Below are positions 3 through 61,188 of a stretch of DNA of 64,000 bases, in pieces. The notes under the pieces were generated by a model. That model was not told the DNA's origin. It was given only the letters and a program-made list of their open reading frames with translations, and did not search any database. Every line of letters begins with the position of its first letter. The first letter of the stretch is position 1. The stretch is taken from NCBI GenBank assembly GCA_963662285.2, contig CAXXMV010000001.1:1152001-1216000 (forward strand). The letters run 5' to 3'. The stretch is from a bacterium (GTDB lineage: Bacteria; Hinthialibacterota; Hinthialibacteria; Hinthialibacterales; Hinthialibacteraceae). A program made the translations under genes and the position numbers.

Positions 3-2414
3 AACAAGACCACCGCTGAAGAACGCTTCAGGTTGTTACGGCCATACGGTGGAGAAGAATACCAACCCGTCAATCGTTCGGAAATCGTTTTTGCCAGGAA
101 TGTCAGAGGAAAACTGCAAGGCGCGGGCAACTGGACTCAACAATATGGCGATCCGCAAAACTCAGCCTGTTCCTATGATGAATTGGTTAATGGGCCCTTA
201 GGCATCTCGTGGTTCGGCGAACCGGGTCCGCAAGGCATGGTGGAACGTCATGCACGCGCTCAAAGCCCTGTGGCTATGGATGGCCGACTTTTTGTTGAAG
301 GCGAAGAATTAATCATGGCAGTCGATGCCTATAATGGTACGCTTCTATGGCAGCGTGAAATCCCCGGAGCGGTTCGCGTTAAAATCAAAGCGGATTGCGG
401 CAACTTATGCATCACGGAAGAAGGCTTATTCATAGCTGCGCTTGATAAATGCTATCGCTTGGATCCAGAGACCGGAGATACGGTGCAGGTTTATGATCTG
501 CCCATTGGTGATCCCGGCGTCTCTCGGCGCTGGGGATACTTGTCGGTGGTTGATGGCGTCCTCTATGGTTCCTCCGCCACGCCTATGACCAATGAATACG
601 CTCATCTGTTGAAAACTTTTTTGACCAATGGTCAATGGCGACCTATTGATGAAGTGCCCAATGAATTTCATGAACAATACCAAACAGCGAGAGCCAGTTA
701 TCCTCTTCCCCTCGATTTAATTCGGGCTGCTCAACGATCAGGTATTACTTATCGATACATGACGTCATTCGCCAGCAGCGGTGAATTCACTCAAAAGAAT
801 TCCGTGTCTGATAGTTTGATGGTAAGCGACAAAGTTTTCGGGATGGATATCAATACTGGTGACTTATTGTGGGAGCATTCTAAAGGTCGTATCGCCAATA
901 TTACCATAGTCATGGGTGACGGGAAAATATTCTTTGCCGATAGCGACGTGGATTCACAACAAAGAGCAAAAGCGCTTGACCAAAGGAAACGATATATCCG
1001 CGAAGGCGTTTATCGTGAACGGCAAGGCATTTTAGATGAATTGCGGGAGAAACAAGAAAAACTGGAAGCATACACCAACCGAACTCCACCAGCTACTAAT
1101 AATGTGTTGGCCTACCTGGTCGATTCACTGAAAGCCGAGTTATTCCAAGAAGAACATCCTGAAGGCGCTTTGACCTACGATGACGCTGATGTTCGCCTGG
1201 TCACCGCTCTCGATATGAAAACCGGAGCGAAAGTATGGGAGCAAATGGTTGATCTTACCGGCTGCGGAGGCGATAAAATGGGCGCCTCGTATCGTGATGG
1301 GCGGCTGCTATTCTTCGGCAACCATGGCAACCACGACGCCTGGCGTTTTCGTGAAGGCGGCATGAAATGGCGACGCATCACAGTGCTTTCGGGCGACGCG
1401 GGAGATATGGCGTGGTCTCATCCGCTCAATTACCGCACCCGCCCCGTTATTGTCGGCAACAAAGTTATATTGGAACCCCGCGCCTGCGACTTGCGCACGG
1501 GTGAAGAGATCACCCGCATTCATCCCGTTACTGGCGAGAATGTTCCGTGGGAATTTTTACGCCCCGGGCATACTTGCGGCATATCCGCCGCATCTGCGCA
1601 AGGATTATTTTACCGCTCGGCCTGTACGGCTTTTTATGATCTTGAAAAAGACCGGGGCATTACTACATTTGGAGCCTACCGTCCGGGATGCGCCATCAGC
1701 GTAATTCCTGCATGCGGCATGTTGTTATCTCCCGAAGCGGCGGCGGGGTGCACATGTTCGTATCCCATCCGTTGTTCCGTCGCGCTGGTGCGAAAACCCG
1801 AACGTACTCAACCTTGGACAATTTTTGTAACGCCGGGATCATTAAAGCCAGTCAAAAGGTTGGCGATCAACCTGGGCGCCGTAGCTGATATGAAGGATGA
1901 TGACGGGACGGTTTGGTTTGGATACCCCAGTCCGAATACCGAGGCGCATAATCATTTCCCCAATTATGGCGTGAAATTCAACTTCAAAGAGGATGGCGTT
2001 TCGGGGATGAAATATTTCAACCGGGATCACAAAAATATCAACATTCCAGGAACCGATAAACCCTGGTTATTCACTTCAGGCTGTGTAGGATTAACCCGGT
2101 GCCGAATTCCATTACTGGATGTTGAAGACAAGGATTCTTCGGGATGCTATACCGTTCGCCTGGGATTCATGCCTCTGAAAAATGATCAAGCGGGTCAACG
2201 GGTATTCAGCGTTAAACTGCAAGATGATGTGGTATTGGAAGATATTGATATCCGTCAGTCATCCGGTTCGCTGAGTCAACCAATAGTTAAAGAATTCAAA
2301 AACATCAGCGTTAAAGATGACCTGGTACTGGAACTAATCCAGAAGAATTCTTCGTCAACTAAAAACGAAGCTACCCTCATAAACTTCATAGAAATTATTC
2401 AGGAAGAGGTGTAG
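3..2414 (+). CDS. PQQ-like beta-propeller repeat protein with C-terminal malectin-like domain (5'-partial)
   Basis: Frame is open from nt 3 to the stop at 2414. It has repeated 'D-x-x-T-G-x-x-x-W' propeller motifs (DAYNGTLLW, DINTGDLLW, DMKTGAKVW), an 'LRPYGG' motif and a C-terminal 'YTVRLGF...GQRVFSVKLQ' malectin-like segment. Confidence 0.8.
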   Translation, partial: NKTTAEERFRLLRPYGGEEYQPVNRSEIVFARNVRGKLQGAGNWTQQYGDPQNSACSYDELVNGPLGISWFGEPGPQGMVERHARAQSPVAMDGRLFVEGEELIMAVDAYNGTLLWQREIPGAVRVKIKADCGNLCITEEGLFIAALDKCYRLDPETGDTVQVYDLPIGDPGVSRRWGYLSVVDGVLYGSSATPMTNEYAHLLKTFLTNGQWRPIDEVPNEFHEQYQTARASYPLPLDLIRAAQRSGITYRYMTSFASSGEFTQKNSVSDSLMVSDKVFGMDINTGDLLWEHSKGRIANITIVMGDGKIFFADSDVDSQQRAKALDQRKRYIREGVYRERQGILDELREKQEKLEAYTNRTPPATNNVLAYLVDSLKAELFQEEHPEGALTYDDADVRLVTALDMKTGAKVWEQMVDLTGCGGDKMGASYRDGRLLFFGNHGNHDAWRFREGGMKWRRITVLSGDAGDMAWSHPLNYRTRPVIVGNKVILEPRACDLRTGEEITRIHPVTGENVPWEFLRPGHTCGISAASAQGLFYRSACTAFYDLEKDRGITTFGAYRPGCAISVIPACGMLLSPEAAAGCTCSYPIRCSVALVRKPERTQPWTIFVTPGSLKPVKRLAINLGAVADMKDDDGTVWFGYPSPNTEAHNHFPNYGVKFNFKEDGVSGMKYFNRDHKNINIPGTDKPWLFTSGCVGLTRCRIPLLDVEDKDSSGCYTVRLGFMPLKNDQAGQRVFSVKLQDDVVLEDIDIRQSSGSLSQPIVKEFKNISVKDDLVLELIQKNSSSTKNEATLINFIEIIQEEV

Positions 2415-2423
2415 AGAATTTAT

Positions 2424-2598
2424 TAAACCTTAAAACGGCAGTTCGTTTTTGCAGAGGTGGTTTATATCAACCCTCTCCTTACCTCTCCCAGTCTTGGGAG
2501 AGGAATGTTAGACCACCGTATTTGTATAACTAAAACACAATGATATAACTGGTAATATTTCCGAAACCCCTCTCCCCCAAGTTGGGGGAGAATTCAAG
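2424..2598. mobile_element. Left half of REP-bearing MITE (family B), interrupted by IS481-family element
   Basis: Closely similar to 31989-32194 (shared tcaaccctctccttacctctccc...gatataactggtaatatttcc...ccctctcccccaagttgggggagaattcaag). The remainder of the element resumes at 4421 (agggggttgtt). Confidence 0.8.
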
Positions 2599-2692
2599 TG
2601 TATGAACCGGGCACATCCTTTACAGAATAAACCGGGCACATGGTTTACACAAGTCGATACTAAGAACCGACCAGAAGAAAGGAGTCGGTTCG

Positions 2693-3766
2693 ATGACTTG
2701 GAAGGAAAACAGTGCCATGGATGCAAGAATGAAATTTATTGCGGATGTCCTCCGCAAAGAAGACACACTAAGCGCCTTATGCCAAGCATATGGCATTAGT
2801 AGACCAACCGGATATAAATGGATCAAGCGCTATCAGGAAGACGGTCCTGGTGGATTGGAGGAGCGATCCCGGGCGCCCCATACCCAAGCACTAGCCGTTT
2901 CTAAAGAGACCGAAAAAGAAGTGAAGGCTATGCGAAAAAAGTTTCCGCACTACGGTCCTAAAAAATTACGGGTGGAACTGAAAAAAAAGGATGCGACGAA
3001 GCACTGGCCGGCAATCAGTACGATTGGCGAGATACTAAAACGCAAAAATCTGATTGTCAGCCGCAAGCAAAAAGATCGCGCCAAACCAAGTGGTGAAGCG
3101 TTAACCGAATTCGACCAAGTGAACCGCGTATGGTGCGCGGATTTCAAAGGAGATTTTCTAACGGGAGACGAACATCGATGTTTCCCTTTAACCGTATCGG
3201 AAGGGGCTAGCCGCTATTTACTCTGCTGCCAAGGCATGCAAGAAACCAATGGCGCATTGGTACGCGTAATTTTCGAGCAGATTTTTCGCGAGTATGGTTT
3301 ACCAGAAGTCATTCGAACGGATAACGGGGCGCCCTTTGCGTCGACCGGAATCGGAGGGTTAACCAAATTATCCGTGTGGTGGATAAAACTGAGAATTTAT
3401 CCAGAACGAATCCAGCCGGGTCGGCCTCAACAAAATGGCCGTCATGAGCGAATTCACCGGACCTTGAAAGCAGAGGCCATTTCTCCACCAGCGCCAACGC
3501 TGCGTGAACAACAAAAACGTTTTGATCAATTTCAAAAAGTGTACAACGAAGAGCGGCCTCATGAGAGTTTGGGACAACGACCTCCCGCGCAGTTGTATCA
3601 ACCCTCGCCGCGCGTCTATTCAGGTAAAGCGCCGAATTGGGAGTATCCAGAGACCATGCAGGTGCGCCAAGTGAAAACCCATGGTGAAATCAGTTGGCGA
3701 AGCAAGCATTGGTATTTGGGGGAAGCTTTGGGAGGTGAATTGGTGGGACTAGAGGAATTGGAATAG
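2693..3766 (+). CDS. IS481-family transposase (HTH + rve integrase core), C-terminally truncated by an in-frame TAG; frame continues to 3904
   Basis: N-terminal HTH (LCQAYGISRPTGYKW) and DDE motifs WCADFKG, IRTDNGAPF, QNGRHERIHRTLK, YNEERPHESL. After TAG 3764-3766 the frame reads NNWRISLGNVILGWL...CPR-TAA (3904). Confidence 0.9.
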   Translation: MTWKENSAMDARMKFIADVLRKEDTLSALCQAYGISRPTGYKWIKRYQEDGPGGLEERSRAPHTQALAVSKETEKEVKAMRKKFPHYGPKKLRVELKKKDATKHWPAISTIGEILKRKNLIVSRKQKDRAKPSGEALTEFDQVNRVWCADFKGDFLTGDEHRCFPLTVSEGASRYLLCCQGMQETNGALVRVIFEQIFREYGLPEVIRTDNGAPFASTGIGGLTKLSVWWIKLRIYPERIQPGRPQQNGRHERIHRTLKAEAISPPAPTLREQQKRFDQFQKVYNEERPHESLGQRPPAQLYQPSPRVYSGKAPNWEYPETMQVRQVKTHGEISWRSKHWYLGEALGGELVGLEELE

Positions 3767-4030
3767 AATAATTGGCGCATTAGTTTGGGTAACGTGATTC
3801 TCGGTTGGTTGAATATGTCAAAAGGTGAGGTGGTGCGTGAATTGTCTTTGAGACGCATCAATCATCCAAAAGCAATCAGTCACCCGGCAGTATGTCCCAG
3901 GTAAAAAATGAGCTAGGGAAGTATCAAGATGATGAATAATTCAGGTATTAATTTTCCTGAGATTGAATCCAGATCGTCTCTTTTTCGAGAAAATCAAAGA
4001 GCGCACGGGTGAAAAAAAAGGTGGCAATAT

Positions 4031-4214
4031 CGGGGGCGCCGCCCCCGTACCCCCGGAGTTTTTTTAGGCATTAGCACAAACTCCAGATAGTATGCAAAAA
4101 AAAGCAAAGGGACGGTTCTAAATCCGTCCCTTTAGCGACTATCCGTCGCCCGTGCACCAGGATATCCCTTGACAGGTTGCTCTCCAGCAGAGCCTGTCTC
4201 CGTTTCTCCTGGTG
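4031..4214. ncRNA. Candidate structured RNA inside the IS 3' non-coding region
   Basis: Five consecutive stem-loops, including a nested multi-stem (caccagga...gacagg...tgctctccagca...cctgtc...tcctggtg). No convincing ORF in this region. Confidence 0.4.
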
Positions 4215-4452
4215 ATAATAACTATCGGATAGCTCGAAATAATCTGTAGAAAAAGAAGTAAAAAAACAGTTCTAGCAAGTAAGCAATTCAGAATACGTTG
4301 ATATACCTGAAAACGGATTATCTCTTTAAAAAAACAGATAAGTTGCCATAATTTTCGAGACAAAAGTGTAAACCATGTGCCCGGTCTAAAGTGTAAACTA
4401 TGTGCCCGGTCATTCACAAGAGGGGGTTGTTTTCAAACACCGTGGATTAATT

Positions 4453-6240
4453 CTAATACAACGACCAATCAGTCACTGCGGTTTGATCAGAGATATCGAT
4501 TCTGCTCCAATCCGGATTGCCGTTTTGTATAGAGTTGGTTAAGGGCCATTGAATAGCCGGATTTTGGTTTGAAACCACCCATAAATTACTGGTCGAGTAT
4601 GTTTTGCTATAGCGCGTATATACGGTATAGTTACCATTAGGCCAGGATACTGACATGGGACCGAAATACTCATTGAAGAGCGTGAATATATCTGACGAAC
4701 TGGAATTATCAAAATCATAGCGTTTCATCTTAACCGCTTGTTGATCTAATTCTGTATAGATCAATCCCGAAGCGTCGGGCAGCCAGGTGGGATTCGATGC
4801 GTTCATGGAATAAAAAACTTCTTCGCCCACAGTGGTTGAATTGTCTTTTATGCGGTAAATCCCTTTAAGAAATTTCTCGTATAAAATCCAATCATCCACA
4901 GGAGACCAGGCTTGAGCGTTCATGGATATATGCTCGCCAAGTTGAGAAAATACATCCTGGCTAATGGTGTATTCCACCGGATCGGGAGTGATTTTTCTGA
5001 AGAGTCCGTCCATAGAAAAACCAATCACTGAGCCATCGCTTGACCAGGTTAAATTACGAGGCTCAAAATGGGAGCTGTTGCGATAGTAGATAACTTGAAC
5101 ATCAGCCACAGTTTCACCAGCGACAACGTCTAGAACCGTCGCTGCGATTTCGCGGTAAGAATCAGAGAGCACGGCGATGGATTGAAAAACGCCAATCCCG
5201 AAGTCCATGACATTTTCAACGCGGAATGTAGTGTAATCATTCGGCGCCAGTTGAATGCTGACCGGCTCAGGCGCCCCGTGAATAATGAGCATAGCCGCAT
5301 AATACTCATTATTCGAGTTATAAACCGTCCCTTCCACTGTGCCGGTAGGCGTATCTGCGGGTAGATTGTTGATTGAAGGGAAATTGGTAATGCGGCGCAG
5401 TCCGCTTCCATCTGGACGAATGGCGAAGATATCTGAAGAGTAAATCGATTGATGGAATTCATGATTGCTGGTGAAAGCGATTTCCGAGGCGTCGGGCCTC
5501 CAGGCGACGTCGAACATTTTGGAGAACTCGCTTTCGATTCGCCATACGCTCCGGTCATTGCTGCCATCAGGCTCTACCAGGCGGATTTCATTGAAATCAT
5601 TATCGCCATGCAGGTAAGTAATCGTTCCAAGCGTATCCGGCGTCATTATTTCTCCCGATATCCTGCATGAAACATTGTCAATATGCATGGCCAAGTCGGA
5701 CGCGACGGCATAAATAATGAAATATAACCTCCCCCCGTTTTGAACATGCTGACTGAGTGTTGCAATATCGGCTGGAGTTAATGAATAGTTGATCGCGTCC
5801 CAGGAGGCGGAAACCCGGTTTGCGTCGTTGTTGAAATGCACCTGAACCAAAGGCGAATCCAAAGGCGCCGCTTGAGCGAATATGCCTGCGCCTGATTGAG
5901 AGAAGCCGGGATTATAACCAACCGACATAAAACGATAATCAAAAGCCACATCAATTTGCTTTATAACCGATGGCGTAAATAGTGGTTGGGCTGTATAAGC
6001 CCAATAATTTTCGCTTTGGGTGGGCGCCAATGACATGCCCCAGCCTGCGCCCTGATAATTGGCTTCCTGAGTGATATACGATAATGAGCCGGAGATTCCC
6101 CAACCCGTGTCATCTGCGTCAAACGATCCGTTAATTATGTATTCGGCGTGGTCAATCGTATTAGCTGAGCATTCGGATATCTCAGTGAAGCATAGGATGA
6201 GCAAGAGAAAAGATAAGCCGGAAATAACAAACGATCTCAT
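4453..6240 (-). CDS. Secreted protein with N-terminal CBM-like domain, TolB/PD40-like propeller repeats and C-terminal VTDWSLY motif
   Basis: Signal peptide; 'INGSFD' CBM-like start; PD40-type 'WRPDASEIAFTS', 'IRPDGSGLRRIT', 'WSSDG', 'WLPDA' motifs; RBS (gaggt) upstream. Confidence 0.75.
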   Translation of the reverse strand: MRSFVISGLSFLLLILCFTEISECSANTIDHAEYIINGSFDADDTGWGISGSLSYITQEANYQGAGWGMSLAPTQSENYWAYTAQPLFTPSVIKQIDVAFDYRFMSVGYNPGFSQSGAGIFAQAAPLDSPLVQVHFNNDANRVSASWDAINYSLTPADIATLSQHVQNGGRLYFIIYAVASDLAMHIDNVSCRISGEIMTPDTLGTITYLHGDNDFNEIRLVEPDGSNDRSVWRIESEFSKMFDVAWRPDASEIAFTSNHEFHQSIYSSDIFAIRPDGSGLRRITNFPSINNLPADTPTGTVEGTVYNSNNEYYAAMLIIHGAPEPVSIQLAPNDYTTFRVENVMDFGIGVFQSIAVLSDSYREIAATVLDVVAGETVADVQVIYYRNSSHFEPRNLTWSSDGSVIGFSMDGLFRKITPDPVEYTISQDVFSQLGEHISMNAQAWSPVDDWILYEKFLKGIYRIKDNSTTVGEEVFYSMNASNPTWLPDASGLIYTELDQQAVKMKRYDFDNSSSSDIFTLFNEYFGPMSVSWPNGNYTVYTRYSKTYSTSNLWVVSNQNPAIQWPLTNSIQNGNPDWSRIDISDQTAVTDWSLY

Positions 6241-6321: not shown

Positions 6322-6506
6322 GTAACAGGTCAGCCATATAAAGTAGTAACACTATAACTATGTTTTATACAAGGCTTTTTTATTAAAATTCTCCCCCCAA
6401 GTTTGGGGGGAGTTAGAGGGGGGTTGCGTTTCAACGAATCAACCCCCACCTAACCTCCCCCAGGCTTGGGGGAGGGATAACGCACTTCAATTGGCTGACC
6501 AGTTAC
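6322..6506. mobile_element. 185-bp MITE (family C) carrying two REP-like dyads
   Basis: 15-bp TIRs GTAACAGGTCAGCCA / TGGCTGACCAGTTAC (1 mismatch) and a perfect 8-bp flanking direct repeat GATTAAAT (6314-6321, 6507-6514). Internal ctccccccaagtttggggggag and cctcccccaggcttgggggagg dyads. Confidence 0.85.
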
Positions 6507-31988: not shown

Positions 31989-32272
31989 ATAATCCTAAAA
32001 TGACAGTCAATTAAGGAAAATGAATCTCGTATTGTCGGGTATTTCTTGCGAAGGTAATTAAATCAACCCTCTCCTTACCTCTCCCAGTCTTGGGAGAGGA
32101 ATCGTTGACCACAGTATTTTGTATTACTAAGTCTAAACGATATAACTGGTAATATTTCCAAAATCCCTCTCCCCCAAGTTGGGGGAGAATTCAAGAGGGG
32201 GTTGTTATCTAAAACCTACGATTATTTTATTAACATTATACGCATAATCTCATGGCCGTTTTTTAGGATTAT
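31989..32272. mobile_element. Intact 284-bp REP-bearing MITE (family B); empty IS481 target site
   Basis: 12-bp TIRs ATAATCCTAAAA / TTTTAGGATTAT and two internal dyads. Contains uninterrupted gaattcaagagggggttg. Confidence 0.8.
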
Positions 32273-53188: not shown

Positions 53189-53224
53189 TCCCCTCTCCCC
53201 ACGGGAGAGGGTTAGGGTGAGGGG
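53189..53224. repeat. REP-like palindrome (CCCTCTCCC-n-GGGAGAGGG-TTAGGGTGAGG type)
   Basis: Same dyad family as inside MITEs B and C; partial copies at ~50207-50229 and ~28670-28690. Confidence 0.7.
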
Positions 53225-60788: not shown

Positions 60789-60874
60789 ACCTGAAAACGG
60801 GTTATCTCTTTAAAAAAACAGATAATTTTCCATAATTTTGAGACAAAAGTGTAAACTATGCGCCCGGTCATTCA
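60789..60874 (+). mobile_element. Isolated right end of the IS481-family element
   Basis: Near-identical to 4305-4416 but with one terminal box lost; followed by CAAG + agggggttgttttcaa as at 4417. Confidence 0.85.
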
Positions 60875-60878
60875 CAAG

Positions 60879-60955
60879 AGGGGGTTGTTTTCAATAACCT
60901 AAGGTTTTTCACTTGGCGTTATAAACATAATTTAATAGTGGTTTTTAGTCTTATA
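60879..60955. mobile_element. Right half of MITE family B
   Basis: Aligns with 32195-32272 (agggggttgtt...ttata..cataat...ttttag..ttat). Confidence 0.6.
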
Positions 60956-61188
60956 GGTGGATTCAATCAAGAGTAAAAAATACAATGCCCTTGACGCCCA
61001 CCCCGTCCATCCTTGCCGCCTGTCTAGGGACAAATCCAAGCGCTATTCTTGAGATATAAACTCTACAATTTTTCATTAAATGACTACCAAGACACAGAGA
61101 TTATGGTATCTTGGGTGTTGATAATAACTTAAATTTAATGCGAGTTTGATTTCGTATACAATGACATAGAAAACGGAGTTAATTCACC

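Follow-up and report, generated by a model that had tools for sequence, protein, structure and literature searches.

An IS481-family insertion sequence that appears to choose a fixed, oriented site beside REP-like hairpin units in a Hinthialibacteraceae genome

The window analysed here, a stretch of 64,000 nt from the forward strand of contig CAXXMV010000001.1 (positions 1,152,001 to 1,216,000; assembly GCA_963662285.2, family Hinthialibacteraceae), carries near its left end an intact IS481-type insertion sequence (IS) of 1818 bp, designated ISa, which is located on the plus strand at positions 2599-4416 and lies inside one copy of an interspersed, hairpin-bearing repeat. ISa interrupts the sequence GAATTCAAG-AGGGGGTTG: the left junction, at 2590, reads GAATTCAAG followed by TGTATGAACC, the right junction, at 4408, reads GGTCATTCA followed by CAAGAGGGGGTTG, and a 4-bp target-site duplication, CAAG, is read in the flanks at 2595-2598 and again at 4417-4420. 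This is the insertion that the original prediction had described from the letters of the window, and both the split repeat and the duplicated CAAG were found as claimed. The limits of ISa are independently confirmed by a public sequencing run, because a collapsed-repeat contig of that run spans exactly 2599-4415 at approximately 4-8 times the flank depth (22.7 versus 5.8 and 2.9). The one joint reported from the public runs, from 2508 to 4417 (side 22), stems from other copies of the repeat, with 90% likeness, and the public-run contigs provided no evidence on insertion polymorphism at the window locus.

The terminal inverted repeats of ISa (left, 2599-2650, plus strand, beginning with TGT; right, 4365-4416, minus strand, ending with CATTCA) are imperfect, with 87% identity over 45 nt; the left end starts with TGTATG and the right end, in reverse complement, with TGAATG, so that the two agree in TG but not in the third base. 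A repeat containing CCGGGCACAT is present twice, in direct orientation, at either end (at 2607 and 2632 on the left; as ATGTGCCCGG at 4375 and 4400 on the right), and these copies are putative transposase-binding sites. The transposase, of 357 aa, is encoded by a single open reading frame (ORF) at 2693-3766 (plus strand) and is comprised of N-terminal helix-turn-helix (HTH) domains and an rve DDE core, with Pfam matches to rve, rve_3, HTH_32, HTH_28 and LZ_Tnp_IS481 (leucine-zipper region). Its best model is NCBIfam NF033577 (IS481 family), with a score of 216.3 bits, a little below the cut-off of 224, and a match extending over positions 2-283 of the 284 in the profile; IS3 is next at 111 bits. 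Together with the Pfam domains this match upholds the family assignment made earlier, and the remaining organization is that of the family: one transposase ORF with rve core and HTH and no programmed frameshift, TG(T) inverted ends, and a short duplication (4 bp in three copies, GTCC in a fourth). IS481-family elements are typically 1-1.3 kb long, a length that ISa exceeds by some 500-800 bp due to a 650-bp non-coding 3' region. Among annotated relatives carried on plasmids, the closest to the transposase reach at most 49.6% identity, and those bearing a family name are called IS481 family. Two Acidisarcina plasmid copies share the repeat architecture of the ends, and their flanks, which belong to another repeated element, are uninformative on targeting. 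Thirteen distant homologue loci (38-57% identity), whose termini were not fixed by automatic end-finding, were not used as evidence; hairpins lie beside the ends at two of them (L047 and L053).

The left part of the host repeat (2450-2598, plus strand; one of about 56 copies) contains hairpin 1 (2483-2502) and hairpin 2 (2570-2590; CTCTCCCCC-AAGTT-GGGGGAG), followed by AATT and CAAG, and the remainder of its right arm (AGGGGGTTGTTTTC and onward) occupies 4421-4495 (plus strand, outer limit approximate). An intact copy, with its core at 32060-32210 (plus strand), displays the empty site: the 18-mer GAATTCAAGAGGGGGTTG is found uninterrupted at a single place in the window, 32187-32204, with CAAG at 32192-32195, one base away from the approximate position (32186-32203) given in the original prediction. 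When the intact 160-nt core was used as a blastn query, 182 matches were obtained, 56 of them of at least 120 nt. Their alignment displays two inverted hairpin units flanking a centre of about 70 nt, imperfectly inverted inner ends (ATCAACCCTCTCC and AGAGGGGGTTGTT), and a nearly invariant site, GAGAATTCAAGAGGGGGTTG. Conservation extends about 25 nt leftward and about 90 nt rightward, the right arm continuing past GGGGGTTG, and the repeat thus reaches beyond the limits of 2424-4436 first proposed for the nested structure. Hairpins of the form CYCYCCC-N3-8-GGGRGRG number 759 counting both strands (about 380 loci), compared with about 1.4 expected from base composition; 162 of the 759 have GGGGGTTG within 4-10 nt downstream, and 162 of the 255 GGGGGTTG sites adjoin a hairpin. 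Further hairpins of the same REP-like type (REP, repetitive extragenic palindromic) lie in the window at 6391-6412, 6455-6476 and 53193-53209, the first two paired a short way upstream of the 5' end of a minus-strand ORF (4453-6240).

The host had been labelled a REP-bearing MITE (miniature inverted-repeat transposable element), and neither part of the label could be kept in its strict sense. A target duplication and a parent transposase or element were looked for at the host repeat and none was found, and a candidate outer inverted repeat was dropped because it is present on both sides in only one of the 56 copies. The host is best described as an interspersed repeat of REP-like units, its status as a MITE being unproven. 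For REPs in the sense of REP-associated tyrosine transposases (RAYTs), such hairpins should accompany the transposase genes; the genome has six Y1-transposase (PF01797) loci, and no hairpin of this kind stands beside any of the genes, the nearest cases being two loci with a hairpin approximately 1.5 kb off, at the edge of the stretch fetched.

The source assembly (7.29 Mb in 8 contigs) contains, by blastn, five full copies of ISa that are 99.7-100% identical, as well as three fragments. The window copy is flanked by GGGGGAG-AATT-CAAG-AGGGGGTTG, CAAG being the duplicated bases and AGGGGGTTGTTTTC likewise standing directly after them in the right arm. The copy at C6:695485 repeats both the register and the CAAG but lies in a different repeat copy, as seen from its loop (AAGCC versus AAGTT) and its right flank (GAGGGGGTTGATTGG). 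The copy at C2:75738 lies in another repeat family, CCTCCCCC-AAGCC-TGGGGGAG-GTTA-GGTG-GGGGTTGAT, with GGGGGAG as the arm; its duplication, GGTG, is different, and true transposition rather than the copying of a junction is therefore implied. Three full copies with 4-bp duplications (CAAG, CAAG, GGTG) thus occupy different repeat copies, each with its left end facing the hairpin, and ISa has been active recently, with a 4-bp staggered cut.

The two other full copies are placed differently. At C6:136574 the duplication is absent, the right flank is the canonical CAAGAGGGGGTTG, and the left flank halts in the loop of hairpin 1, directly after CCTCTCCCAATCT, with about 95 bp gone, a pattern that would follow if two copies had recombined or if an adjacent deletion had occurred. 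The transposase frame of this copy (C6:136668-137738) holds an in-frame TAA. The copy at C1:607699 has a GTCC duplication and is inserted in the related element ISB, 12-16 bp within its left tip. Seventeen of the 26 terminal bases are common to the ends of ISa and ISB (our count), and the location fits an affinity that the ISa transposase may have for an end resembling its own. At this locus (C1:607699-609516) ISa is nested in ISB, and that ISB in the hairpin-1 loop of a host repeat, giving three levels of nesting.

Remnants of ISa-like ends mark the same junction elsewhere. In the window, a right-end remnant at 60790-60874 (plus strand; 91% identity across 89 nt, only one of the two terminal repeats retained, everything upstream lost) adjoins CAAGAGGGGGTTGTTTTCAA at 60875, where the right arm of a different host-repeat copy begins with CAAGAGGGGGTTG (60875-60965, plus strand); the original prediction had started this remnant at 60789 and had allowed that the junction might merely be a duplicate of the window insertion. 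The latter is not the case, because the arm is a different one and the IS part is only 91% identical, compared with 99.7-100% among full copies: the 115-nt flank is 63% identical to the window flank, takes 32nd place in a ranking of 52 right arms from the repeat family, and is closest (88%) to the arm of another repeat copy. At C6:1503549, 31 nt of the right end are followed by AAGAGAGGGTTG, and at C8:899563, GAGAATTCAAG is followed by the ISa-like terminal 23 nt, both at the same junction.

In a DNA search of 41 related genomes, matches were found in 22, including the source genome (G000); 20 end-bearing stretches were fetched and 19 ends were placed, one stretch (L045) giving no alignment. 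All five ends in G013 are at a canonical-type site, two left ends following GGGGGAGGTTA-GGTG or GGGGGAGGTTA-GGAG and three right ends preceding GGAG(A)GGGGGTTGA, a right flank also present at two loci of G020. These G013 insertions are not inherited orthologues, because the sequence upstream differs from that of the C2:75738 locus. Canonical-type sites were likewise found for two of two loci in G020 (one a 3-copy tandem), two of two ends in G012 (one degenerate) and the single end in G023, and ISa-like ends in five other genomes share the same hairpin geometry. The tandem locus, L038 (G020:C15:78480-79326), has three ISa-like ends abutting CAACCCCCTCC, head to tail with 197-nt spacing and running into the contig end, and may be a tandem array of a miniature element derived from IS ends. 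When metagenomes were scanned with an IS-end pattern of 14 specified bases, one of 120 among the matches listed was a real IS end, a figure that carries no information on abundance. Tabulating flanks in this manner, as had been suggested, yielded multiple independent insertions at the hairpin site in the source genome and its relatives, and the claim of a site-specific, oriented insertion stands on the flanks of the full copies, the ends in the relatives and a common register.

This register is best described from the G-rich 3' arm of the hairpin. All three canonical full copies have their IS tip 8 nt past GGGRGAG, a distance made up of a 4-nt linker and the 4-bp duplication. Among 12 left junctions (six in the source genome and six elsewhere) the distance is 8 nt in seven (three in G000, two in G013, one each in G012 and G025) and 9 nt in that of G023; the copy in the ISB tip and the copy lacking a duplication are exceptions. 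The C8 remnant, with a GGGTGAG arm, also has its tip at 8 nt, and at a metagenome locus (L107) 8 nt likewise separate the tip from the end of the arm found there. Linkers vary (AATT, GTTA, GAAA, AAAG, GCTG), as do duplications (CAAG, GGTG, GGAG, TTTT, GATG), and the distance from the duplication to GGGGGTTG takes the values -1, +1 and +2. The constant 8-nt distance from the arm, set against the variable distance to GGGGGTTG, therefore points to the G-rich arm as the ruler. In single-strand folds of the reconstructed empty sites (-14.0, -18.2 and -17.8 kcal/mol) the duplicated bases fall in the unpaired linker 3' of the hairpin, and the 60-nt site core folds at -10.6, compared with -4.6 ± 1.8 for shuffled sequences. 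A random hit on the composite site (162 sites with hairpin and GGGGGTTG, 7.29 Mb, two strands) has a probability of about 1e-5, against which three of the five full copies, with both junctions, lie at such a site, a frequency far above chance, the definition of the site being post hoc. The pattern is that of REP- or palindrome-targeting ISs: independent copies in differing repeat copies and families, at one position and in one orientation, with empty sites present.

Two further kinds of mobile element were found at the same hairpins. ISB is a second IS481-type element of 1507 bp, with 35% amino acid identity to ISa, ends TGTAAAGG...CTGTACA, and an NF033577 score of 268 bits, above the cut-off. 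Eighteen copies were identified by tblastn, an example being locus L181 at C2:1182427-1183470, with the 17 others also outside the window. A 5-bp duplication accompanies 17 of the 18 copies. In at least 13 of the 18 it covers the loop or the beginning of the 3' arm in a hairpin of the form CCCTCTCCC-loop-GGGAGAGGG, these hairpins belonging to several repeat families; three further copies are in imperfect or already interrupted hairpins, and one has no hairpin nearby. One copy has no duplication and is flanked on both sides by hairpin halves. A transposase search of the order (26 genomes, E<=1e-80) and of five relatives (E<=1e-30) found only one ISB-like gene. The third element, non-coding and of about 445 bp (C6:941729-942173, locus L180:130-574, and 10 other places), is bounded by inverted ends of 16 bp that match perfectly (CTACTCTCCGTACACA) and contains the remnant of a Y1 transposase (..PDHVHILL..); like ISB it inserts into hairpin loops, all 11 copies coming after the 5' half of such a hairpin, directly behind CCC-NNNGGG.

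We propose, with a probability of roughly three in four, that ISa is a recently active IS481-family DDE element whose transposase chooses an oriented site 8 nt past the G-rich arm of a hairpin unit. Insertion would occur in one orientation, the left (transposase-proximal) end toward the hairpin, with a 4-bp staggered cut beginning 4 nt after the G-rich 3' arm (GGGRGAG) and the IS tip consequently 8 nt further on than the arm; the site usually lies close to, and 5' of, the (A)GGGGGTTGA that terminates the unit. The transposase itself, probably via its N-terminal HTH region, would read the arm or the hairpin as a ruler, and the hairpin units may serve as harmless landing pads common to several mobile elements; in evolutionary terms the 'safe haven' of the original prediction would be a sensible reading. 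The two non-canonical copies would then be secondary events, one an insertion into the ISB tip, the other a recombination or adjacent deletion in which the DNA from hairpin 1 to the site was lost. As to the claim that the hairpin is recognised as a structure, the constant spacing of 8 nt points to the G-rich arm as the ruler, and this spacing does not separate the sequence of the arm from the shape of the hairpin.

Several observations weigh against this proposal, which is supported by in silico evidence. Two of the five full copies have no canonical left flank. The junction events in the genome number approximately 6-7, mostly in one repeat family, and the arm and GGGGGTTG nearly always occur together; as (162/255)^6 is about 0.07, the counts are compatible with a reader of GGGGGTTG only. 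Elsewhere, only one of four ends in G008, none of three in G021 and not the single end in G011 are at a canonical-type site, and the single end in G025 (L044) has a G-arm with no obvious C-arm, which hints that sequence may matter over shape. The related genomes are short-read metagenome-assembled genomes, in which only IS ends at contig edges were assembled and the two junctions of one insertion are never both visible.

The strongest competitor, which we nevertheless consider unlikely, places the determinant on the other side of the cut, in the (A)GGGGGTTGA motif that terminates the repeat unit, with the hairpin as a bystander. This motif is on the right of every canonical site, and since 162 of the 255 GGGGGTTG sites are hairpin-adjacent, the counts fail to separate the two models. 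Spacing does discriminate, the distance from duplication to GGGGGTTG varying (-1, +1, +2) where that to the arm is a constant 8 nt, and the G012 locus L032, the G025 locus L044 and the metagenome locus L107 keep the geometry of the arm with different linkers, their right sides being unseen. Slightly less probable still is a host protein, such as a REP-binding factor, that binds the hairpin units, tethers the transposase and reads the site in its place. Such a factor would explain why ISa, ISB and the 445-bp element, three mobile elements of unrelated kinds, all end up at the same hairpins, and for the ISAba32-type elements at xrs sites the authors leave open an interaction with bound XerC/D (bioRxiv 10.1101/2022.12.17.520857); however, no candidate protein has been identified, and the different registers of ISa (8 nt past the arm) and ISB (the loop) are easier to accommodate if each element does its own reading. 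Spread between repeat copies without any targeting, the flanking repeat serving for homologous recombination or gene conversion, could draw on a multi-copy host repeat present on both sides of ISa and on two copies that share CAAG, and is excluded because duplications and flanks differ: C2:75738 has a GGTG duplication in a different repeat family, the flanks of the window copy and of C6:695485 diverge no more than 1-15 nt from either end of the IS, and the G013 junctions have GGAG and GGTG. Random insertion followed by survival of those copies that fell into harmless repeats is equally improbable: intergenic repeats are plausibly neutral, but selection cannot impose one phosphodiester bond and one orientation within a neutral repeat of about 270 nt.

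Within the extra 3' region of ISa, a non-coding module at 4029-4232 (no strand assigned) recurs outside ISa in many related genomes. Its core, at 4130-4228 and readable on either strand, is conserved and, with covariation in support, resembles a structured RNA: across 11 aligned sequences and 20 predicted pairs, 91.8% of the paired cells pair, compared with 83.1 ± 1.1 in shuffled alignments, and ten pairs have changes on both sides, compared with 4.8 ± 1.3, a result reached by none of 500 shuffles, with slid controls at 26-46%. Exceptions of the G-U and C-A types are about equal, so that no strand is favoured; the minus strand has a terminator-like hairpin with a T-run after the motif (approximately 4100-4135). 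A scan of window positions 2300-4600 against Rfam gave no match at E<=1. The motif is just 3' of an IS3-family orfB in three of 10 related loci and is multi-copy in relatives (8 places in G016, 6 in G007); a solo copy lies in the source genome at C8:769320-769397. A bridge-RNA-like guide role was rejected as unlikely, as elements sitting at different targets have invariant loops and vary in the stems only. In G007 (contig C17, locus L005) an IS3-family element carrying the motif, its left end following GGGGGGAG-TATAA, lies between two copies of GTTTCAATCCACGCTCCCGTGGGGGGAG (about 170-215 and 1770-1800), a pair that looks like CRISPR repeats.

A wider interpretation, which we hold only tentatively and on balance do not favour, combines these strands. 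A clade of the IS481 family would have evolved direct, register-specific reading of hairpins (ISa 8 nt past the 3' arm, ISB in the loop), the hairpins being a shared pad for at least three element families, and ISa would in addition carry a mobile module of structured RNA, of a class not yet described, obtained from IS3-family elements or jointly with them and acting on transposition, for example as an antisense or 3'-untranslated-region regulator.

Insertion sequences that aim at palindromes represent a known route by which a mobile element can multiply without killing its host, and are of practical interest as natural site-specific DDE integrases. ISa and ISB are two related enzymes in one genome that each use the same hairpin in a register of their own (ISa 8 nt outside the stem and with 4 duplicated bp, ISB in the loop and with 5), and they offer a ready comparison for determining which part of the transposase sets the choice of target. 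The hairpin repeats of this lineage gather at least three kinds of mobile DNA, which matters for the annotation and assembly of its genomes. The gain is incremental, the principle of such targeting being already established.

IS481 of Bordetella pertussis, the type member of the family, is about 1 kb long and targets the short sequence NCTAGN. ISa shares with it a single-ORF rve transposase, an N-terminal HTH, a short duplication and a specific target, and differs in its length of 1.8 kb, its non-coding module, and a target keyed to a hairpin unit. Among REP-targeting elements, IS1397 inserts in the loop of the hairpin, and ISB, with its loop insertion, is therefore a closer analogue of IS1397 than ISa is. 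The IS3-family members of this group use DDE (rve) enzymes that are related to those of IS481. In the survey of Tobes and Pareja (2006; PMC1525189), REP-targeting ISs are assigned to the IS3, IS110, IS4, IS256 and IS5 families and include IS1397 and ISKpn1 (IS3 family), ISPsy8, ISPa11, ISPpu9/10, ISRm22 and ISRm19, and IS481 has no occurrence in that text. These elements and ISa are alike in being multi-copy, in occupying a fixed place in repeated extragenic palindromes and in having empty sites elsewhere, and they differ in that the surveyed ISs lie inside the palindrome while ISa lands 8 nt outside the stem. Our literature search, of incomplete coverage, found no paper describing hairpin or REP targeting by IS481-family elements.

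The closest behavioural match is the ISAba32 subgroup of the IS1202 family. According to the preprint that describes it (bioRxiv 10.1101/2022.12.17.520857), the enzymes of this subgroup are distant relatives of the IS481 and IS3 transposases, its ends begin with TGT, termini that are also cited there for the IS481 family, and its members insert in an oriented manner, with the left inverted repeat (IRL) 5-6 bp from the xrs palindromes (XerCD sites). ISa resembles these elements, as they are presented there, in an IRL directed toward an imperfect palindrome, a fixed short distance that includes the duplication, and repeated hits on one and the same site. The target of ISAba32 is a protein-bound recombination site (xrs/dif) with a 5-6 bp duplication, whereas ISa goes to a hairpin unit of REP-like type, leaving a 4-nt gap and duplicating 4 bp. 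The landing-pad habit is thus known in other IS families, to which the IS481 family is an addition.

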